Sequence record: MN850590.1
From: Escherichia phage moha
Direction: 5' to 3' (one strand)
Length of the DNA stretch: 64,000 nt
The notes beneath the pieces are model-generated. The model did no database searches. It saw only the letters and a program-made list of their open reading frames with translations, and was not told the origin of the DNA. Shown in pieces: positions 1,533 through 12,249 of the stretch. Each line of letters starts with the position of its first letter. Position 1 is the stretch's first letter. The position numbers and the translations under genes are program-made.

Positions 1533-1955
1533 ATGGCTTTTAAAGGTTTTGAAGTTGGTAAGAAATATCGTATTATTAAAGGACAGGAAGATAATTTCTT
1601 GAGAATTCTTAATACGACTGGTAAACGTCTTAACACTACTCTGCATACAGTTTTATTATCAAGAGATTTTATTGTAGAAGAGATGATTGGTTATGGTGTT
1701 TCAATGATTGCCGCTGAAACCGATGGACCTGGACGTACAATCATTAGTATGCAAGGTGATATTCTAATTTACGGTGCAGAATTTAAATTCTTTGAAGAAG
1801 TTCCTGAATCAGATACAGCCGTAGATTTCAAAAAAGGCTCTATAGAATTTGTTGATGGTTCGGTGATCGTATCAGGTGATGTGGTCATTACAGTTAAAAG
1901 TGAACAAGGGCGTTTGGCTGCAATTGATGCACTTCAGAAAATTAAATTTAAATAA
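1533..1955 (+). CDS. hypothetical early protein (T4 goF-position, 140 aa)
   Basis: ORF immediately upstream of gene 39, size matches T4 goF (~141 aa); followed by hairpin terminator; identity by synteny only. Confidence 0.5.
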   Translation: MAFKGFEVGKKYRIIKGQEDNFLRILNTTGKRLNTTLHTVLLSRDFIVEEMIGYGVSMIAAETDGPGRTIISMQGDILIYGAEFKFFEEVPESDTAVDFKKGSIEFVDGSVIVSGDVVITVKSEQGRLAAIDALQKIKFK

Positions 1956-1974
1956 GGGCTTCGGCCCTTTTTGC
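1954..1974 (+). terminator. intrinsic terminator (GC stem, UUCG loop, U-tract)
   Basis: AAGGGC-TTCG-GCCCTT then TTTTTG. Confidence 0.6.
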
Positions 1975-2018
1975 TTTAGATTTCGGATGATAGAATACCT
2001 TCATAACGAGGAGACAAC

Positions 2019-3836
2019 ATGATTAAAAATGAAATTAAGGTATTGTCAGATGTAGAACATATTAAGAAACGTAGTGGTATGTATATTGGTTCTTCTGCTA
2101 AAGAAGCACATGAGCGTTTTTTGTTTGGTAAATATCAACAAGTTGAATATGTTCCTGGTCTGGTTAAATTAATCGATGAGATTATTGACAACTCGGTTGA
2201 TGAATCTATTCGTACATCATTTAAGTTTGCAAATAAAATTGATGTGCAAATTAAAAATAATCAAGTTTCGGTGGAAGATAACGGACGTGGTATTCCTCAA
2301 GGTTTAGTTACCGACCAAACAGGTGAACAAATTCCTGGGCCTGTAGCAGCCTGGACTATTCCAAAGGCTGGTGGTAACTTTGGTGATGATTCTGAACGCA
2401 AGACTGGTGGTATGAACGGCGTCGGGAGTAGTTTAACTAATATCTTCTCTACGTTGTTTACAGGCATCACGTCAGATGGCGAAAATGAAATCACTGTTAA
2501 TTGTTCAAACGGAATGGAAAACAAATCATGGTCTTCTAAGAAATCTAAATGTAAAGGCACTAAAGTAATCTTCACTCCTGATTTCTCTTCATTTGAAGAG
2601 CATAATTTATCTCAAATTTATTTAGATATTACTTTAGACAGACTTCAAACATTGGCAGTCGTTTATCCTGATATCAAGTTCACATTTAATGGTAAAAAGG
2701 TTGATGGTAATTTTAAACGATTTGCTAAACAATTTGGTGAAGATAACATCATTCAAGAAAATGATAAAGTCTCTATAGCATTCACAACATCACCAGATGG
2801 CTTCCGTCATTTAACTTATGTGAATAACATCCATACTAAAAATGGTGGTCATCATGTTGAATGTGTAATGGATGATATCTGCGAACATCTTTTGCCCGGT
2901 ATTAAAAAGAAATATAAGGGTATTGAAGTCACTAAAGCTCGTGTTAAAGAATGTCTCACAATGTTGATGTTTATTAGAGACATGAGCAACATGCGTTTTG
3001 ATTCTCAGACTAAAGAACGTTTAACGTCAACGTATGGTGATATTCGTAATCATATCCAATTAGATGCTAAGAAAATTGCTCAGGCACTTCTTAAAAACGA
3101 AGCCTTGATTATGCCTATTGTTGAAGCAGCATTAGCTCGTAAATTGGCAGCAGAAAAGGCTGCAGAAACTAAAGCAGCTAAAAAGGCAACTAAAGCTAAG
3201 GTTCATAAGCATATTAAAGCTAACCAATGTGGTAAAGATGCAGATACGACATTGTTTTTAACAGAAGGTGATTCGGCAATTGGTTATCTCATTGATGTTC
3301 GTGACCGTGAACTACACGGCGGATTCCCATTACGTGGTAAGGTGATGAATAGCTGGGGTATGTCATATGCTGATATGATGAAGAACAAAGAGCTCTTTGA
3401 TATCTGTGCTATCACGGGTCTTATTCTTGGTGAAAAGGCAGAGAATACGAACTATCGTAATATTGCAATTATGACCGATGCCGATCATGACGGTCTTGGA
3501 AGTATCTATCCGGCTTTGCTTGCTTTCTTTAGTAATTGGCCTGAATTGTTTGAACAAGGACGTATTCGCTTTGTTAAAACACCTGTAATTATTGCACAAA
3601 TTGGCAAAGCTCAAAAATGGTTTTATACTGTAGCTGAGTATGAAGAAGTTAAAGATACACTGCCTAAGCATAGTATTCGATACATCAAGGGATTAGGCTC
3701 CCTTGAAAAGTCAGAATATCGTGAAATGATTCAGAACCCTGTGTACGACGTAGTTAAACTTCCTGAAAATTGGAAAGAACTCTTTGAAATGTTGATGGGT
3801 GATGATTCAGAACTTCGTAAAGAATGGATGTCCTAA
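2019..3836 (+). CDS. 39: DNA topoisomerase II large (ATPase, GyrB-like) subunit, uninterrupted gene 39 (39+60 equivalent)
   Basis: 605 aa; GHKL ATPase motif VEDNGRGIP; N-terminus resembles T4 gp39; single ORF as in T2-type phages, no bypass element. Confidence 0.9.
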   Translation: MIKNEIKVLSDVEHIKKRSGMYIGSSAKEAHERFLFGKYQQVEYVPGLVKLIDEIIDNSVDESIRTSFKFANKIDVQIKNNQVSVEDNGRGIPQGLVTDQTGEQIPGPVAAWTIPKAGGNFGDDSERKTGGMNGVGSSLTNIFSTLFTGITSDGENEITVNCSNGMENKSWSSKKSKCKGTKVIFTPDFSSFEEHNLSQIYLDITLDRLQTLAVVYPDIKFTFNGKKVDGNFKRFAKQFGEDNIIQENDKVSIAFTTSPDGFRHLTYVNNIHTKNGGHHVECVMDDICEHLLPGIKKKYKGIEVTKARVKECLTMLMFIRDMSNMRFDSQTKERLTSTYGDIRNHIQLDAKKIAQALLKNEALIMPIVEAALARKLAAEKAAETKAAKKATKAKVHKHIKANQCGKDADTTLFLTEGDSAIGYLIDVRDRELHGGFPLRGKVMNSWGMSYADMMKNKELFDICAITGLILGEKAENTNYRNIAIMTDADHDGLGSIYPALLAFFSNWPELFEQGRIRFVKTPVIIAQIGKAQKWFYTVAEYEEVKDTLPKHSIRYIKGLGSLEKSEYREMIQNPVYDVVKLPENWKELFEMLMGDDSELRKEWMS

Positions 3837-3860
3837 GCTCCTTCGGGAGCTTCATTTTAA
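3836..3860 (+). terminator. hairpin / weak terminator after gene 39
   Basis: AAGCTCC-TTCG-GGAGCTT followed by CATTTTA; U-tract interrupted. Confidence 0.45.
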
Positions 3861-3878
3861 TTTTAATAAGGCTTAATT

Positions 3879-4979
3879 ATGAAAGTTATGTTTATCCCAT
3901 CTCGTGCAGTCCCATTTAACCCAGAACGTGTACAAGGTGGTCTTGAAGCAGTACATTTAAATGTGTTGAAATATCTTGTGTCCATCGGTGCCGATATTGA
4001 TTATATTGGTTTTGATAATGACACATTTGGTGATTGGAAGGTTAATCATCATCCTGTTGGTCATCTGACTAAATTCAGTCTAGGTATGAGTTATACTATG
4101 GCTCGTAAGATTGTTGAACTAGCCGGCATCCATGAATACGATTTTGTTGTTACTATGGAACCGACTAAACTAACCGTTCAGGCAATTAAAGACGCAGGTC
4201 TCTCTAAAGTTCATAAGAATTTTATGGCAACACCATTTGAACCGGTATCTCGTGGCATTGTTCAAATTTGGGACCAGACTATTCAAATTCATAAGAATGG
4301 TGGTAAGAGTTATGCTCCTACTAAAGCCTTCCGTGAATTTGAACGTAAATATTGTTATATGACTTCAGGTCTGACTGACAAAATTGATTATGATTATTGG
4401 CGAGCAAATCCTTTGTTTGAAGCCGAAGATTATCCGGTTATTTGTTTGACTGAAAAGCCAGAAGTTCTTCCGGCGACGGATCTGATTATTAGTGCACAAC
4501 GTTATGACACTAAAATGCGTCGTACTGATGTTGCTCTTGAAGCGATTAAAGCACTAGGCGAAAATGGTGCAGGATACTGTCCAAGCAAATGGGCGCCACC
4601 GGCTAAATATCCTGTTATTATTGATGCTCCACACAGTGAAATTATGGAACGTCTTAAAACAGCTAAAGCACTTATTAATACGTGTCCTGACACAGGTACG
4701 GTAGAGAATAGTTCTATTGAAGCCATCTCTAAAGGTGTCCCTGTAATCCAGTTAGTTTTTAAGGATTATCCTCATGCGACATTTGAATACGACCCAGATA
4801 CTGTGCGTGTAGAAATTGATTCCTCTACTCCTAAGAAAGAAGTAGTTGCGCTTTACACAAAAGCTGTATTAGAATTCACTGACACATACGAAGCTCGAGT
4901 TAAACGTGCTGAAGCAGTATGGAAGAAGTATAACCGAGATGCAGTTGTTGCGATGTGGGATAAAATCTTCACAGCGTAA
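3879..4979 (+). CDS. putative GT-B fold glycosyltransferase (GT4-like)
   Basis: 366 aa; N-terminal PFNPERVQGGLEAV (GG-x-E motif) and C-terminal ENSSIEAISKGVPVI (E-x7-E / EAxxxGxPVI motif) typical of GT4 family; occupies the gene 60/mobA locus of T4. Confidence 0.5.
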   Translation: MKVMFIPSRAVPFNPERVQGGLEAVHLNVLKYLVSIGADIDYIGFDNDTFGDWKVNHHPVGHLTKFSLGMSYTMARKIVELAGIHEYDFVVTMEPTKLTVQAIKDAGLSKVHKNFMATPFEPVSRGIVQIWDQTIQIHKNGGKSYAPTKAFREFERKYCYMTSGLTDKIDYDYWRANPLFEAEDYPVICLTEKPEVLPATDLIISAQRYDTKMRRTDVALEAIKALGENGAGYCPSKWAPPAKYPVIIDAPHSEIMERLKTAKALINTCPDTGTVENSSIEAISKGVPVIQLVFKDYPHATFEYDPDTVRVEIDSSTPKKEVVALYTKAVLEFTDTYEARVKRAEAVWKKYNRDAVVAMWDKIFTA

Positions 4980-5071
4980 ATCCTGAATAGCCTGAGGCAC
5001 TATTACACATAAGATGATAGATTATACGGTCTTTAGTAATAGTGCCCTAGGAATCTACTGAAGAGAATATT

Positions 5072-5272
5072 ATGAGAACATATAACGTGGACTTGGAACT
5101 TTTTGATAAAGCAGTGCTCCGGGAATTCCGGCTTATCCAAAGATTTTTTGATATCGAATCAGCAGAGTCCTTTAAAGAACGCTTTAAAGAAATTCGATAT
5201 AAAATACAAACCGATACAGCTACTAAAGAAGAACTTCTTGAAGTAGCAGAAATTTTTAAACGTAACTTGTGA
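5072..5272 (+). CDS. rIIA.1: rIIA.1-like small protein
   Basis: 66 aa ORF directly upstream of rIIA, same size and position as T4 rIIA.1. Confidence 0.6.
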   Translation: MRTYNVDLELFDKAVLREFRLIQRFFDIESAESFKERFKEIRYKIQTDTATKEELLEVAEIFKRNL

Positions 5273-5284
5273 TGAGAGAAAAAT

Positions 5285-7498
5285 ATGATTATTGAAACGG
5301 CTAAAGAAACGATTATTGGTTCAGGCGGTAAGAGCACAGCATTCACTATTCAAGGCAATAGCAAAGTTTATAAGATTTTGTCTAATGACCTTTATACAAA
5401 CAAAGAATTGGCTTGTGTACGTGAATTAATCACAAACTGTATCGATGGACAAATTCTTAATGGTTGCACTGATAAGTTTATTGTTCAGGCTCCAGGTCGT
5501 TTAGACCCACGTTTTGTAGTTCGAGACTTTGGTCCTGGTATGAGTGATTTCACCATTCGAGGTAATGACGAAGAGCCAGGAATCTATAACTCATATTTTG
5601 CTTCAACTAAAACATCGAGTAACGATTTCATTGGTGGATTCGGACTCGGCTCTAAAGCTCCATTAGCATATACCGATACGTTTAACCTTACGTCTTATCA
5701 CAACGGTGAAGTTCGTGGTTACGTAATCTACCAAGATGACACTGGTCCACAGATTAAGCCAACCTTCGTAGATAAGATGGGTCCTGATGACCGGACCGGC
5801 GTTGAAGTAGTTGTACCGGTTAACCCAGAAGATTTTGAAAAGTTCGCATCCGAAATTGCATATGTTATGCGTCCTCTAGGTGATATTGCAGAAGTTCGCG
5901 GTGTTAAAGATATCAAATACTTTCCTGAATTCGATGATGTTTATTTAGCCAAGGAAGCTCCATGGGGTGAACGTGGTAATATCATGGCTGTTTATGGTGG
6001 TATTGTATATCCAATCGGAAGTGTTATTAAAGAACAAACATGGATGATGACGCGATGCACTACAGCTTATATTAAATTCCCTATGGGTGAACTAGATGTA
6101 GCCCCGTCTCGTGAAGCATTGTCATTTGATAAACGTACAGTAGCAAATATCCATAAACGCGTTGCAGAAATCGATGCTAAATTGTTCGCTGAAGATTCTA
6201 AGAAATGGATTGATTGTAAATACCCACGTCATGTGTTCCGTGAAATTGATTCTCTTGGCTATACCGCTCGTAAATACATGGAAAAGGCTGGGTCTAATAT
6301 TGAATCACTGAAATACTCTAAAGAACAACTAACTTATTCCGAGTTGTACAAACGTTTTAAAATGGGACCCGAATGGTGCAACCTTGGCGTTGTATATGAT
6401 ATCGTTTCAGACCCACGACTTCGTCGTATTCGTGAAAGCGGAAGCTCGTCTGCAACTATTTCAATTAATAGCCTGCTAGGTATTAGTCGTAAGCATATTG
6501 ATATCGTTATTGACGATGTGAAAGGCCGCGTACCAATGATGCGTGCTCTGAACGATGCTTTGACTTCCACCGATGCATCAACACTCGTTGATAAGGTTCC
6601 TTCCGGATGGGGTAGTAGCGTATTATTCATTAACCCGGAAGATGAAGTTGCAATGAAACTTCTGGAACGATTAAAGGTTATTTTCGCTGGTGATAGCCTT
6701 AAATTTTATAAGACCTCTGAAATTCTTGCATTAGTTAAACCATGGATTGAAGTTAAAGAACGTTCATCGCAGCCTCGTCCTAAATCCCCAAGTGCTCATC
6801 GGTTCTTTAAGAATGAAAACGATGTTTGGGTATCGGAAGATCTCTTTATTCCAGCGAGTGAAGCTGGTGAAATCCAAGGTTATGCTATAGTTCGTAATCG
6901 TTCTAATGCTGAATGTCTTGACGCAGATAAAGGTTGGTTGAACTATGACTCTAATTTCTTGACCCGTATTGCTGATTTGTCAGATATTAAAGAGTTCACT
7001 GTAGTCCGTCCACAGATTGCTAAGAAAGTTCGTAAACTTGGTGAAGTAGAATGCTTGTTCGAAAAATCAATTAATGACTATATTACGCTAATCGATAAAG
7101 TAGATTATGATGAGTATGTATCACCAAGTCGTAGAGCACAGCCCTATCTAAACCATATTACTCGTAATGAAGAGCTTAACTTCCTTAGTAAGTATTTTAG
7201 CTCTAAGAACAAAGAAATCAGTAAAGATTTTGCAAAACTCTCCACAGTAAATAATCGCTGGGGATGGAATCGATTCGCAGGTGCTACTAATACAGACCTG
7301 AATAAGAAGTTAGAATTGTGTGCTAAAATTTTCGATAAGCTTAAAGATAATGCTTACGATAATGATGATAAAATGATTATTGAATTCGAAACCAATTATC
7401 ATATTGTGTCAGAATACATGGGACGACGTGGTACTCTTTCAAAAGAACAGGTCGCTCAAATCGTTAAATTCATGAAGGCCGTGGAAGCGGCCAAATAA
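5285..7498 (+). CDS. rIIA: rIIA protein (membrane-associated, GHKL-type ATPase fold)
   Basis: 737 aa (T4 rIIA 725 aa); followed by rIIB; recalled similarity to T4 rIIA. Confidence 0.9.
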   Translation: MIIETAKETIIGSGGKSTAFTIQGNSKVYKILSNDLYTNKELACVRELITNCIDGQILNGCTDKFIVQAPGRLDPRFVVRDFGPGMSDFTIRGNDEEPGIYNSYFASTKTSSNDFIGGFGLGSKAPLAYTDTFNLTSYHNGEVRGYVIYQDDTGPQIKPTFVDKMGPDDRTGVEVVVPVNPEDFEKFASEIAYVMRPLGDIAEVRGVKDIKYFPEFDDVYLAKEAPWGERGNIMAVYGGIVYPIGSVIKEQTWMMTRCTTAYIKFPMGELDVAPSREALSFDKRTVANIHKRVAEIDAKLFAEDSKKWIDCKYPRHVFREIDSLGYTARKYMEKAGSNIESLKYSKEQLTYSELYKRFKMGPEWCNLGVVYDIVSDPRLRRIRESGSSSATISINSLLGISRKHIDIVIDDVKGRVPMMRALNDALTSTDASTLVDKVPSGWGSSVLFINPEDEVAMKLLERLKVIFAGDSLKFYKTSEILALVKPWIEVKERSSQPRPKSPSAHRFFKNENDVWVSEDLFIPASEAGEIQGYAIVRNRSNAECLDADKGWLNYDSNFLTRIADLSDIKEFTVVRPQIAKKVRKLGEVECLFEKSINDYITLIDKVDYDEYVSPSRRAQPYLNHITRNEELNFLSKYFSSKNKEISKDFAKLSTVNNRWGWNRFAGATNTDLNKKLELCAKIFDKLKDNAYDNDDKMIIEFETNYHIVSEYMGRRGTLSKEQVAQIVKFMKAVEAAK

Positions 7499-7507
7499 GG
7501 AAACATT

Positions 7508-8455
7508 ATGTACAATATCAAATGCTTGTCCCAAGAAGAACAGTTAGAAGCTTACGGCCTGGTTGAATCAGGCAAATGGACTCGTAAAGAAATTGCCGAT
7601 TACTTCGACATTTCAACAGATACTCTTCGTAAGATTGTTAAGAATTTTAAAGCAGAAGGCGTTGTCCCTGAAGCAAACGATGCCTCTTATGTAATCGAAG
7701 AAGTTCCAGAAAATGATGAACCTATTATCGGCGGCCATCGTCCTGAAATCGTATGGAACGCGTCATCTAAATTTATTTCAATTATTGAAGGACGCGTAGC
7801 ATACAATGCGACTCCATCAAGTCATGCAAATTTTGAAGAAATTAAAGCTAATCTGGTCGCAGGAAACCTTAGTAAAGCTGTCGAACTTATTAACATCAAG
7901 AAAGCTATTAGTAAGTTTGTTGACGGTAATGTTGTTATTGAAGGTGGTAGTTTATTTTATCAAGGTATAGAAATTCGTTCAGGACTGGTTAATCGTATTA
8001 TTGATTCCATGGAAAAAGGCGAAGACTTTAAATTCTATCTGCCGTTCCTTGAAAACCTGTTAGAAAACCCAAGCGAAAAAGCTGTACAACGTTTATTCGA
8101 CTTCTTGGTTGCAAACGATATTGAAATCACTGAAGATGGTCATTTCTATGCGTGGAAAGTAGTTCGTAAGGACTATTTAGACTGCTATAGTGGTACATTT
8201 GATAACTCCCCAGGTAAAGTTGTTTCAATGCCTCGTACTCGAGTTAACGACGATGATACTCAAACCTGTTCTCGCGGTCTCCACGTTTGTGCTAAATCTT
8301 ATATTCGCCACTTTGGTTCAAGCTCAGATAAAGTTGTGAAAGTTAAAGTTCATCCACGTGATGTTGTATCCATCCCGGTTGACTATGGTGATGCTAAGAT
8401 GCGTACATGTCGTTATGAAGTAATTTCAGACGTTACTGAATTATTTGCAGAATAA
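7508..8455 (+). CDS. rIIB: rIIB protein
   Basis: 315 aa; N-terminus MYNIKCL and C-terminal region match recalled T4 rIIB; followed by GGGGAC-UUCG-GUCCCC terminator. Confidence 0.9.
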   Translation: MYNIKCLSQEEQLEAYGLVESGKWTRKEIADYFDISTDTLRKIVKNFKAEGVVPEANDASYVIEEVPENDEPIIGGHRPEIVWNASSKFISIIEGRVAYNATPSSHANFEEIKANLVAGNLSKAVELINIKKAISKFVDGNVVIEGGSLFYQGIEIRSGLVNRIIDSMEKGEDFKFYLPFLENLLENPSEKAVQRLFDFLVANDIEITEDGHFYAWKVVRKDYLDCYSGTFDNSPGKVVSMPRTRVNDDDTQTCSRGLHVCAKSYIRHFGSSSDKVVKVKVHPRDVVSIPVDYGDAKMRTCRYEVISDVTELFAE

Positions 8456-8460
8456 TAATT

Positions 8461-8483
8461 GGGGACTTCGGTCCCCTTTTTTC
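8461..8483 (+). terminator. intrinsic terminator after rIIB
   Basis: GGGGAC-TTCG-GTCCCC then TTTTTTC. Confidence 0.7.
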
Positions 8484-8496
8484 TTTAGGGGTAATT

Positions 8497-8784
8497 ATGA
8501 TTCATCCATTTGACGTATCAGAATCCAAAATCGCTAATCTTCGTGGCCATCATAAATGTAAATCAGTGTATTGCGCTAAATTGGTAAAACACCCAGGTGA
8601 TGCACACTATGGCTGGTTAGAATGTGACGAAGTTGTTATTGAAATCCCACCGGTAGATGCAGAATATCTTGAAGAAGGTGACCGCATTTATTTTGGCGAA
8701 CTACACATTAGAGGTATCTATGGTAAAGACGAACTTGGGACTGTTGAGGCTGAAGAGTCTTCCGACATTTATCCTGTCGAATGA
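8497..8784 (+). CDS. hypothetical protein
   Basis: 95 aa ORF after rIIB terminator with AGGGG RBS; protein-like composition. Confidence 0.5.
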   Translation: MIHPFDVSESKIANLRGHHKCKSVYCAKLVKHPGDAHYGWLECDEVVIEIPPVDAEYLEEGDRIYFGELHIRGIYGKDELGTVEAEESSDIYPVE

Positions 8785-8800
8785 GTTTTTGACTAGCGAA

Positions 8801-9277
8801 ATGAAGGTTAAGATCGCTGATACTGCTCGGTACTCGTTGAAACAAGATCCAGGTCAAATAAAAGAAGACGTTGTTCGACGTTGTAAGGTTGCAGTCTTTG
8901 CAGAGTATGTAGTAGCAAATTGGCTAGACGGATATGTTAATAAAGGTAATGAAGACGTAGAAGACCCGTACACGTATGCATGGGACGTTTTAGCTCATCC
9001 TAAGTACTGTGGTCTACGCGTAGAAGTAAAGACCCATCAGATGGATTCGAAATGGATTTCGGTTACCACAGGATACGGTGGTGATTATCCGGGTGGCAAC
9101 GGAATAAACATAGGGCCCTTCCTTAATCATCGAGTCGCTGACTGTATTATTATATTGAATGTCAAAGAAACCTCACCTGACGTCTTCTCTTATTCTATAA
9201 AGTTTGTGGGAGACCATGAAGACCTAAAGAAAATCGTCCGCAAGAGCAACTACAACGGGTGGTATCTTCATCTTTAA
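8801..9277 (+). CDS. hypothetical protein (T4 denB-position; identity unconfirmed)
   Basis: Listed ORF 8657..9277; N-terminal 48 codons look out-of-frame-like and overlap the upstream ORF, so start placed at ATG 8801 (159 aa). Confidence 0.45.
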   Translation: MKVKIADTARYSLKQDPGQIKEDVVRRCKVAVFAEYVVANWLDGYVNKGNEDVEDPYTYAWDVLAHPKYCGLRVEVKTHQMDSKWISVTTGYGGDYPGGNGINIGPFLNHRVADCIIILNVKETSPDVFSYSIKFVGDHEDLKKIVRKSNYNGWYLHL

Positions 9278-9289
9278 TTTCATAAAAGT

Positions 9290-9319
9290 GTTTACAACTA
9301 AGTAGGACTATGATATATT
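9290..9319 (+). promoter_or_regulatory. early promoter: -35 GTTTAC, -10 TGaTATATT
   Basis: GTTTAC 9290-9295, TATATT 9314-9319; palindrome TAGGACTA/TAGTCCTA 9303-9326. Confidence 0.5.
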
Positions 9320-10133: not shown

Positions 10134-10580
10134 ATGTCCAAATATTTAACTCGTAAAGACCTTCTGGCAGTTGGCGGTGAAGTTGTTGCAGTAGTTCGTA
10201 ATGGCGAATACGGTTCTGAAGTTTCTAAAGAGTTTCGTTCTCGTGAAGGTTTTTACTTCTTCGTTAAAGGTTCATCTGATTGGCGACAAGTAGCAGCACG
10301 ATTCTTTGTAGGACGTCAACGTTCTAAACAAGGGTTGGATGCAATTCTTTCTCACATTCGTCAAGGCCGTTCGCAACTAGCCCGTACCATGGGCACTAAC
10401 AATATTGAATATGATGTAATCTTTGTTGCAGCTAAGAACATGAAACCACTGACCACTGGTTATGGTAAAGGTCAATTGGCTCTGGCATTCACTCGCAATC
10501 ATACATCAGAATATCAAACACTCACCGAAATGAACCGTCTTCTGGCCGATAATTTCAAATTCATTCTGCAGAGTTACTAA
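10134..10580 (+). CDS. ndd: nucleoid disruption protein Ndd
   Basis: 148 aa; strong recalled similarity to T4 Ndd ([11 protein letters not shown]...[14 protein letters not shown]...LADNFKF); position between rIIB and 52. Confidence 0.85.
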
Positions 10581-10632
10581 TTTATACGGACCTATTAAGT
10601 TGGGCCTTTAATTTATTTTTGAGGTAATTAAA

Positions 10633-10779
10633 ATGGTAGCATGGATTATTGCATTGCTGTGTTGGTCGTTTTTATTCGTTAACACTTTAGTTACGGGCGA
10701 AACAACAGTATTTCAACAGGCCGTATCACAAGGTACCTTAGCGGTCTTAGCTCTTATTAACGTGTTAAAAGGCGAGTAA
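10633..10779 (+). CDS. small membrane protein (T4 ac-position)
   Basis: 48-codon ORF, hydrophobic (MVAWIIALLCWSFLFVNTLV...); not in ORF track. Confidence 0.35.
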   Translation: MVAWIIALLCWSFLFVNTLVTGETTVFQQAVSQGTLAVLALINVLKGE

Positions 10780-10920
10780 TGATTAAGAAAATCTTAGCAG
10801 GAGCCTTCGGGCTCTTGTTGTTGCTTACGGTTCTGTACTACGGTGTGATGTTTGGACTAATCCAAGTAGTGCTTTTCATTTCAGATGTTATAATGGTTAT
10901 TCGTTCATTAATATGGTGAA
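10780..10920 (+). CDS. small membrane protein
   Basis: 46-codon ORF immediately following, hydrophobic (MIKKILAGAFGLLLLLTVLYYGVMFGL...); ends 3 nt before gene 52. Confidence 0.35.
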
Positions 10921-10923
10921 AAT

Positions 10924-12249
10924 ATGCAATTGAATTCTCGTAATCTAAAAAGTATTATTGATAACGAAGCCTTAGCATATGCGATGTACACCGTTGAAAA
11001 CCGTGCAATCCCAAACATGATTGATGGATTTAAGCCGGTTCAACGTTTTGTGGTCCATCGTGCGTTAGATTTGGCTCGTGGTAATAAAGAAAAATTTCAT
11101 AAACTTGCGTCAATTGCAGGCGGTGTTGCAGATTTAGGTTATCACCATGGTGAATCTTCTGCACAAGATGCAGGTGCATTGATGGCTAACACATGGAACA
11201 ACAACTATCCACTGTTAGATGGCCAAGGCAACTTTGGTTCTAGAACAGTCCAAAAAGCTGCAGCATCTCGTTATATTTTTGCTCGTGTAAGTAAAAATTT
11301 CTATAACGTATATAAAGATACTGAATATGCTCCAGCTCATGAAGATAAAGAACACATTCCACCAAAATTTTATCTTCCTATTATTCCGACAGTTCTTTTG
11401 AATGGCGTCTCTGGTATTGCAACCGGTTACGCAACAAATATTCTGCCTCATAGTTTTAAATCAGTCAAAAAGGCTGTATTACAAGCTCTTCAAGGTAAAA
11501 ATGTCACTAAGCCAAAAGTTGAATTCCCGGAATTCCATGGCGAAGTACATGAAGTTGATGGGCGTTATGAGATTCACGGAACATATAAGTTCACATCTCG
11601 CACTCAAATGCAGATAACTGAAATCCCATATAAATTCGACCGTGAAACGTATGTGAGTAAGGTTCTTGACCCATTAGAAGATAAAGGTCTAATCTCATGG
11701 GAAGATGATTGTGGTGAACACGGCTTTGGGTTTAAGGTGAAGTTCCGTAAAGAGTACTCGCTTCCAGATGACGAAGAGCTACGTCATGAAAAAATCATGA
11801 AAGATTTTAGTCTCATCGAACGTCGTTCACAAAACATCACAGTGATTAATGAAAAGGGTAAATTAGCGGTCTACGATAATGTAGTAGACTTAATCAAAGA
11901 TTTTGTTGAAGTCCGTAAGACTTACGTTCAGAAACGTATTGACAACAAAATCCTTGAATCTGAAAAAGCATTTAAACTGGCTTTTGCTAAGGCGCACTTC
12001 ATCAAAAAAGTTATCAACGGTGAAATTGTGATTCAGGGCAAGACTCGTAAAGCTTTGACTGAAGAGCTAGCACAAATCGAAATGTATAAAGAACATGTCG
12101 ATAAACTGGTAGGTCTTAACATCTTCCATATCACTTCCGACGAAGCACGTAAACTAGCAGAAGAAGCTAAAGCTAAGAAAGAAGAAAATGAGTATTGGAA
12201 GTCTACTGATGTTGTGACAGAGTACACTAAAGACTTGGAGGCACTTTGA
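10924..12249 (+). CDS. 52: DNA topoisomerase II medium (GyrA-like) subunit
   Basis: 441 aa (T4 gp52 442 aa); GyrA-like N-terminal motif RAIPNMIDGFKPVQRF. Confidence 0.9.
   Translation: MQLNSRNLKSIIDNEALAYAMYTVENRAIPNMIDGFKPVQRFVVHRALDLARGNKEKFHKLASIAGGVADLGYHHGESSAQDAGALMANTWNNNYPLLDGQGNFGSRTVQKAAASRYIFARVSKNFYNVYKDTEYAPAHEDKEHIPPKFYLPIIPTVLLNGVSGIATGYATNILPHSFKSVKKAVLQALQGKNVTKPKVEFPEFHGEVHEVDGRYEIHGTYKFTSRTQMQITEIPYKFDRETYVSKVLDPLEDKGLISWEDDCGEHGFGFKVKFRKEYSLPDDEELRHEKIMKDFSLIERRSQNITVINEKGKLAVYDNVVDLIKDFVEVRKTYVQKRIDNKILESEKAFKLAFAKAHFIKKVINGEIVIQGKTRKALTEELAQIEMYKEHVDKLVGLNIFHITSDEARKLAEEAKAKKEENEYWKSTDVVTEYTKDLEAL

Follow-up and report, generated by a model that had tools for sequence, protein, structure and literature searches.

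An RB69 gp3-type gene between topoisomerase gene 39 and rIIA.1 of Escherichia phage moha, probably encoding a DNA arabinosyltransferase that adds a second sugar

We consider it likely that the 366-aa open reading frame (ORF) that follows gene 39 in Escherichia phage moha encodes a DNA arabinosyltransferase of the RB69 gp3 type, most probably the one adding the second (beta-Araf) sugar to the modified cytosine of the phage DNA. The analysis covers a 64,000-nt stretch of sequence record MN850590.1, hereafter the window, and its own support for this assignment consists of sequence identity, orthology, a GT-B fold, synteny and the phyletic pattern of the family. UDP-sugar binding and Araf transfer by the window protein would follow by analogy from the title of a homologous structure (9IR0, 'with UDP') and from the activity of the DLP3 paralogs (PMC13326640). 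A second-sugar role with a beta-1,3 linkage is what we infer for this particular enzyme.

According to the ORF listing and the sequence, the ATG-started ORF lies exactly at 3879–4979 on the plus strand. At the base composition of the window the chance of 366 stop-free codons is ~4e-12, and ~6e-7 ORFs of 366 codons are expected by chance in the whole window; the ORF is a real gene. The genes run in the order unsplit gene 39, 366-aa ORF, rIIA.1, rIIA and rIIB. Gene 39, described as uninterrupted in a preliminary description of this DNA, is indeed a single frame of 605 aa and represents the unsplit counterpart of the T4 39 + 60 pair. The same description had placed T4 gene 60, with its translational bypass, and mobA in the corresponding region, where both are seen together with 60.1; strictly, however, it is the ancestral gene 39 that 60, 60.1 and mobA break up, and exactly where the ORF lies T4 has only a 54-nt spacer. 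Since GC and GC3 of the ORF match those of the neighbouring genes, there is no sign of its recent acquisition, and recent horizontal transfer was rejected as its origin.

Table 1 Features at the gene 39/rIIA.1 junction of the window
Feature	Position	Strand	Basis or remarks
GC hairpin (AAGGGCTTCGGCCCTT + TTTT), then MotA-box-type middle-promoter candidate	1954..1996	+	Motif only; upstream of gene 39
Unsplit gene 39, topoisomerase II large subunit, 605 aa	2019..3836	+	DNA_gyraseB, HATPase_c, Toprim, TOPRIM_C; RB69 annotation
Terminator-like GC hairpin, 7-bp stem, UUCG loop, then T-rich CATTTTAATTTT	3835..3852	+	Terminator scan; directly 3' of gene 39 stop
Shine-Dalgarno-like TAAGG	3867..3871	+	7 nt from its end to ATG; read from sequence
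366-aa ORF, RB69 ORF003c/gp3 ortholog, PHROG 8302, putative second (beta-Araf) transferase	3879..4979	+	
Imperfect inverted repeat, 16 nt, CCTGAGGCACTATTAC / GTAATAGTGCCCTAGG, 29-nt loop	4991..5051	+	Between 366-aa ORF and rIIA.1
rIIA.1, downstream neighbour of 366-aa ORF	5072..5272	+	PF24210 T4_RIIA1, E 2e-30

Between gene 39 and the ORF we found neither a T4 late promoter (TATAAATA) nor a MotA-box/-10 pair able to initiate upstream of the ATG, in agreement with the earlier impression that the ORF has no visible promoter of its own, and sigma-70-like matches in the region were fewer than in shuffled sequence (7 vs 11.7). The MotA-box candidate upstream of gene 39 (TGCTTTA, 12 nt, TAGAAT at 1972–1996) is, judging from its motifs, a likely promoter for a transcript comprising gene 39 and the ORF. 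Because the search between the two genes was negative and this candidate sits upstream of gene 39, gene 39 is a plausible source of read-through transcription into the ORF, as the preliminary description had supposed. Such transcripts would have to pass the terminator-like hairpin at 3835–3852, whose stem is present in both the MFE and the centroid structures of a 61-nt segment, at a z-score of only -0.5. Downstream of the ORF, the 101-nt region that includes the inverted repeat folds as RNA with an MFE of -27.7 kcal/mol (z -3.8, a stability reached by 0 of 200 shuffles), and the hairpin predicted there could be a terminator, an RNA-stability element, an RNA-processing hairpin or an RNase site.

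The encoded protein is 100% identical to APCEc01_026 of Escherichia phage APCEc01 and 99% identical both to RB69 NP_861693.1 (RB69p003, annotated 'RB69ORF003c hypothetical protein') and to Bas46 bas46_0103 (QXV76947, annotated 'putative hmC-arabinosyltransferase'), and the same flanking genes, unsplit gene 39 and rIIA.1, are found in RB69, Bas46, APCEc01 and the window. The 1.7 kb around the ORF show 99.9% identity to APCEc01 and 98–99% to ~150 further records of Mosigvirus (RB69-like phages); several Mosigvirus genomes share 95–97% identity with the window over 25 kb. In PHROGs the protein matches phrog_8302 ('unknown function') over positions 1–366 of 366 with an E value of 3e-222. A PDB sequence search matched a single chain, 9IQZ/9IR0, which is 98% identical end to end, with 7 substitutions; the fold-library titles of these entries, released 2025-07-16, are 'phage HY126 glycosyltransferase' for 9IQZ and 'phage HY126 glycosyltransferase with UDP' for 9IR0. 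We take He et al. 2026 (Nat Chem Biol) to be the source of 9IQZ.

By these sequence relationships the ORF is the RB69 ORF003c/gp3-type gene of Mosigvirus and not a new finding; we count it as known because it was predicted in 2018, a homolog was crystallised by 2025, and it was placed in a characterised pathway in 2025–26. Novelty of the sugar-transfer function is not supported, as ORF003c of RB69 was proposed in 2018 (PMC6024577) and the crystallised homolog (9IQZ/9IR0) is 98% identical. In the record of Shigella phage JK45 (MK962757, locus piece 601–2204) a complete 1101-nt ortholog is followed by an extra 411-nt CDS that matches the same protein by tblastn, a partial tandem duplicate before rIIA.1, either genuine or produced during assembly. 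Tequatrovirus is the genus given for this record, although its sequence at the locus is Mosigvirus-like.

Arabinose was found in RB69 DNA by Thomas et al. 2018 (PMC6024577), who, on the strength of custom HMMs and of HHpred matches to GT4 structures and T4 alpha-gt, also picked ORF003c (366 residues) as the probable arabinosyltransferase. By MS/MS and NMR the RB69 base was identified as beta-D-Araf-(1-3)-alpha-D-Araf-5-hydroxy-2'-deoxycytidine, the sugar being ether-linked to 5-hydroxycytosine and not to hmC (Lee et al. 2026, PMC13326640). There, RB69p003 is named 'beta-arabinosyltransferase 2' and gp46:47 'arabinosyltransferase 1', both roles being proposals, whereas it was shown experimentally that DLP3 gp76 and gp77 jointly put a third Araf on RB69 DNA from UDP-Araf; the single DLP3 transferases were inactive alone (PMC13326640). 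The same work describes Thanatos as mono-arabinosylated, with the first transferase the only one reported. Mosigvirus NP carries mono- and di-arabinosyl-dC at 1:4 (PMC13390438), and Bas46 and Bas47 are described as doubly arabinosylated. Bas46 without the arabinosyltransferase Aat is sensitive to a plasmid-borne defence (Mahler et al. 2025, as presented in a citing paper, where the gene behind Aat is left unspecified). The accessible literature reports no direct assay of RB69 gp3 or of exactly this protein. The preliminary description had listed additional DNA hypermodification among its candidate functions; the literature does assign the gene to DNA modification, but not one additional to glucosylation, as in these phages arabinosyl-5-hydroxycytosine replaces glucosyl-hmC.

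Scans of the 366-aa protein against Pfam and NCBIfam gave no match even at E <= 1. The Glycos_transf_1 and Glyco_trans_4 Pfam HMMs were unmatched by the window protein and sub-threshold in two distant family members only, and a profile of the family alignment retrieved 9IQZ alone from the PDB sequences, the remaining matches (E > 0.3) being noise. The AF2 model from a 13-sequence alignment, with a pLDDT of 91.8 (60.9 in an earlier 6-sequence run), predicts a GT-B glycosyltransferase with two Rossmann-like domains and an inter-domain cleft. The Pfam search proposed earlier as a check was thus without a match while a GT-B fold is present, and a simple profile search (Pfam, NCBIfam) gives a false negative for this family. 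The nearest structural neighbours are GT4 enzymes (PimA, BshA, MshA, WaaG, sucrose-phosphate synthase) at 10–15% identity, which bears out the GT-B/GT4-like fold expected from the sequence motifs.

Those motifs fared differently. The N-terminal GG-x-E was confirmed: PFNPERVQGGLEAV at residues 12–25 carries a conserved GGLE, whose G20 and G21 hardly vary within the family. The C-terminal E-x7-E was a misreading of ENSSIEAISKGVPVI (residues 276–290), where ENSSIE gives E276-x4-E281; G273 stands eight residues before E281, and the single literal E-x7-E lies in the N-terminal domain, at residue 86. The canonical C-terminal EX7E is not intact, position 273 being a (nearly) invariant Gly, yet E276 and E281 are themselves (nearly) invariant, as are G20/G21, R208, R214, T272-G273-T274 and A282. 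GT4 enzymes have a Gly-rich phosphate loop, an Arg/Lys phosphate pair and a ribose-binding Glu, to which the invariant residues may correspond by analogy. The protein is GT4-like at the level of the fold; two other marks of GT4, an HMM match and an intact EX7E, are both absent.

The family is small. A word-indexed homolog search gave 5 clusters, and an exhaustive HMMER search of 1.84 billion proteins gave 11 representatives at 50% identity. A distant metagenomic member (P0008) lies on a 1.5-kb contig with no gene context, and every placeable member, by tblastn against phage records, belongs to Mosigvirus or to an Acinetobacter T4-like phage. The record OZ038340.1 ('Tegunavirus sp. BRC001') has two family copies, 92.8% identical to the KARL-1 protein, which would fit an Acinetobacter T4-like phage and makes the taxonomic label questionable.

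Taken with the published pathway, the following mechanism appears probable. The protein would be a soluble two-domain GT-B enzyme; the UDP-sugar would bind in the cleft formed by the two Rossmann domains, in contact with the conserved G20-G21 loop, R208/R214 and E276/E281. On replicated phage DNA it would move D-arabinofuranose from UDP-Araf to O3 of the alpha-Araf on 5-hydroxycytosine, and so produce beta-D-Araf-(1-3)-alpha-D-Araf-5-hydroxy-dC, which is the di-arabinosylated base that RB69-type phages carry. The first sugar would come from a sequence-unrelated transferase of the RB69 gp46:47 type, whose gene is expected in the pol-uvsX cluster ~20 kb away, together with genes for a 5-hydroxy-dCMP synthase and for UDP-Araf synthesis, and the second sugar would make the phage DNA harder for host nucleases and defence systems to attack. 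Paralogy of the window protein with the 299-aa first transferase was considered and rejected (BLASTP E 2.9).

In APCEc01, the pol-uvsX cluster comprises a SIS-domain (arabinose-5-P) isomerase, an NTP-transferase/kinase fusion, a small phosphatase-sized ORF, a U32-family protein, a ThyA (thymidylate-synthase) homolog, the 299-aa first-transferase candidate and a 182-aa kinase-sized ORF, and its proteins are 97–100% identical to RB69 gp45–55. By tblastn neither these genes nor T4 alpha-gt and beta-gt matched within the 64-kb window, which stops short of the pol-uvsX region; from the close relatives we infer that Escherichia phage moha carries the cluster outside the window. RB69 ORFs 46/47 and 52/53 correspond to single intact APCEc01 ORFs (299 aa, 561 aa): RB69 NC_004928 598–1498 and 4095–5781 hold two adjacent fragments each, against APCEc01 10555–11454 and 6269–7954 (locus pieces). 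Sequencing errors that shift the frame in the RB69 record, the explanation given in PMC13326640, would account for these splits.

Acinetobacter phage KARL-1 has two tandem paralogs of the window protein (gp208/gp209), 57% identical to each other and 41–43% to the window protein, inside its arabinosylation cluster. By tblastn DLP3 holds the same two copies, which must therefore be the gp76/gp77 pair assayed by Lee et al. (PMC13326640). In the KARL-1 locus piece (2076–9296) the isomerase, kinase/NTP-transferase, phosphatase, ThyA homolog, first transferase, nucleotide kinase and the two paralogs are contiguous. Many Acinetobacter phage records label the paralogs 'putative DNA alpha-glucosyltransferase', a label that is probably wrong.

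The first-transferase (gp46:47) family occurs by tblastn in 348 phage records from at least 10 host genera, with Escherichia, Klebsiella, Serratia, Yersinia, Enterobacter, Proteus, Erwinia and Acinetobacter phages among them. The family of the window protein occurs in 211 (tblastn), ~155 of them Mosigvirus with one copy and ~56 of Acinetobacter type with two. The ~137 phage records with the gp46:47 family and without an ORF003c-family gene, including Klebsiella Marfa-like, Escherichia JS10-like, Yersinia phiR1-RT and Serratia X20 phages, are predicted from this gene content to be mono-arabinosylated; most such genes in these candidates are annotated as hypothetical. Family copy numbers of 0, 1 and 2 parallel the reported mono- (Thanatos), di- (RB69/NP/Bas46) and tri-arabinosylation (DLP3), and because copy number tracks the additional arabinoses, the window protein appears to be a chain elongator rather than a primary transferase.

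This pattern bears directly on the original 2018 proposal, framed as arabinosyl-hmC, in which the protein would be the primary transferase and place the first arabinose directly on the modified cytosine. We regard that proposal as unlikely, since ~137 records have the remainder of the arabinosylation cluster but lack this family (348 vs 211) and its copy number follows the number of extra sugars, while every such phage has the gp46:47 type, and Thanatos, which is mono-arabinosylated, is reported to have no other transferase (PMC13326640). Moreover, the 2018 search used RB69 ORFs 46 and 47 as annotated, i.e., split by the frameshift in the RB69 record, and because of this split the gp46:47 candidate was presumably hidden from it. 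The activity of DLP3 gp76 and gp77 only as a pair (PMC13326640) and the degenerate EX7E motif would also suit a non-catalytic or accessory subunit that helps another transferase. We give this reading little chance, given that the donor-binding residues G20/G21, R208, R214, E276 and E281 are (nearly) invariant in the family, that a homolog with 98% identity has a UDP-bound crystal structure (9IR0), and that the single copy in Mosigvirus leaves the protein without a paralogous partner.

That the enzyme glycosylates a virion protein, a glycan of the host envelope, a small molecule or some further non-DNA target, along the lines of the second candidate in the preliminary description (a virion or host glycan), seems highly improbable. 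The nearest structural neighbours do work on lipids, small molecules and polysaccharides, and in Mosigvirus the gene sits outside the DNA-modification cluster; however, the Acinetobacter paralogs lie inside the DNA arabinosylation cluster and lengthen arabinosyl chains on DNA in vitro (PMC13326640), the family is restricted to phages with poly-arabinosylated DNA, and the placeable ones among its mere 11 representatives (50% identity, 1.84 billion proteins) are all from Mosigvirus or Acinetobacter T4-like phages.

Some observations count against the preferred reading of the protein as the second-sugar transferase. By analogy with the single DLP3 transferases, which are inactive alone, it may need a partner; in addition, the canonical EX7E is not intact, and structurally the protein is nearest to GT4 enzymes, which are retaining. 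The last point applies to both arabinosyltransferases, as retaining GT4 enzymes are also the closest structural relatives of gp46:47 (PMC13326640, Table 1). If the alpha first and the beta second sugar come from one donor, as presumed, then one enzyme of this GT4-like pair must invert. Inversion is atypical for GT4. That the window enzyme or gp46:47 is an inverting transferase on a normally retaining GT4-like scaffold is a tentative and somewhat doubtful proposition; if the enzyme did invert, the displaced E276, replacing the first Glu of EX7E, would be part of the switch.

The arabinosyl-5-hydroxycytosine pathway is how RB69-like (Mosigvirus) phages escape restriction, CRISPR and DNA-glycosylase defences, and it decides which type IV systems still target them, which is relevant to the choice of therapeutic phages. 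Within this pathway the gene described here probably sets whether DNA carries one or two sugars. The 'hypothetical protein' label on most of the ~155 Mosigvirus records is outdated, and Pfam and NCBIfam are without a model for the ORF003c/gp3 family.

Among known systems, the window protein is closest to RB69 gp3, Bas46 bas46_0103, the HY126 enzyme (9IQZ, 9IR0) and PHROG 8302, with 98–100% identity over 366 aa, and it shares with this group the position between gene 39 and rIIA.1 and the genus Mosigvirus, differing by a few conservative substitutions. DLP3 gp76/gp77 and KARL-1 gp208/gp209 resemble the window protein over the full length (41–43% identity) and have the same conserved residues, and the substrate and donor of the Acinetobacter pair are arabinosylated 5-hydroxycytosine DNA and UDP-Araf. 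Unlike the one Mosigvirus copy at the 39/rIIA junction, however, the pair consists of two tandem copies in the cluster, jointly builds the third, beta-1,5-linked sugar and is active only as a pair. The GT4 enzymes are much more remote, at 10–15% identity and with no Pfam/NCBIfam match for the window protein; they retain configuration, whereas the window protein has a proposed beta-linked product, a broken EX7E and, as its acceptor, a sugar on DNA. The T4 DNA glucosyltransferases alpha-gt (GT72) and beta-gt (GT63) have no profile similarity to it (hhalign probability 0.3–0.4%, i.e., below 1%) and occupy a different genome position, which upholds the earlier distinction from the T-even DNA glucosyltransferases: they transfer Glc onto 5-hmC, whereas the window protein is proposed to transfer Araf onto arabinosyl-5-hydroxyC.
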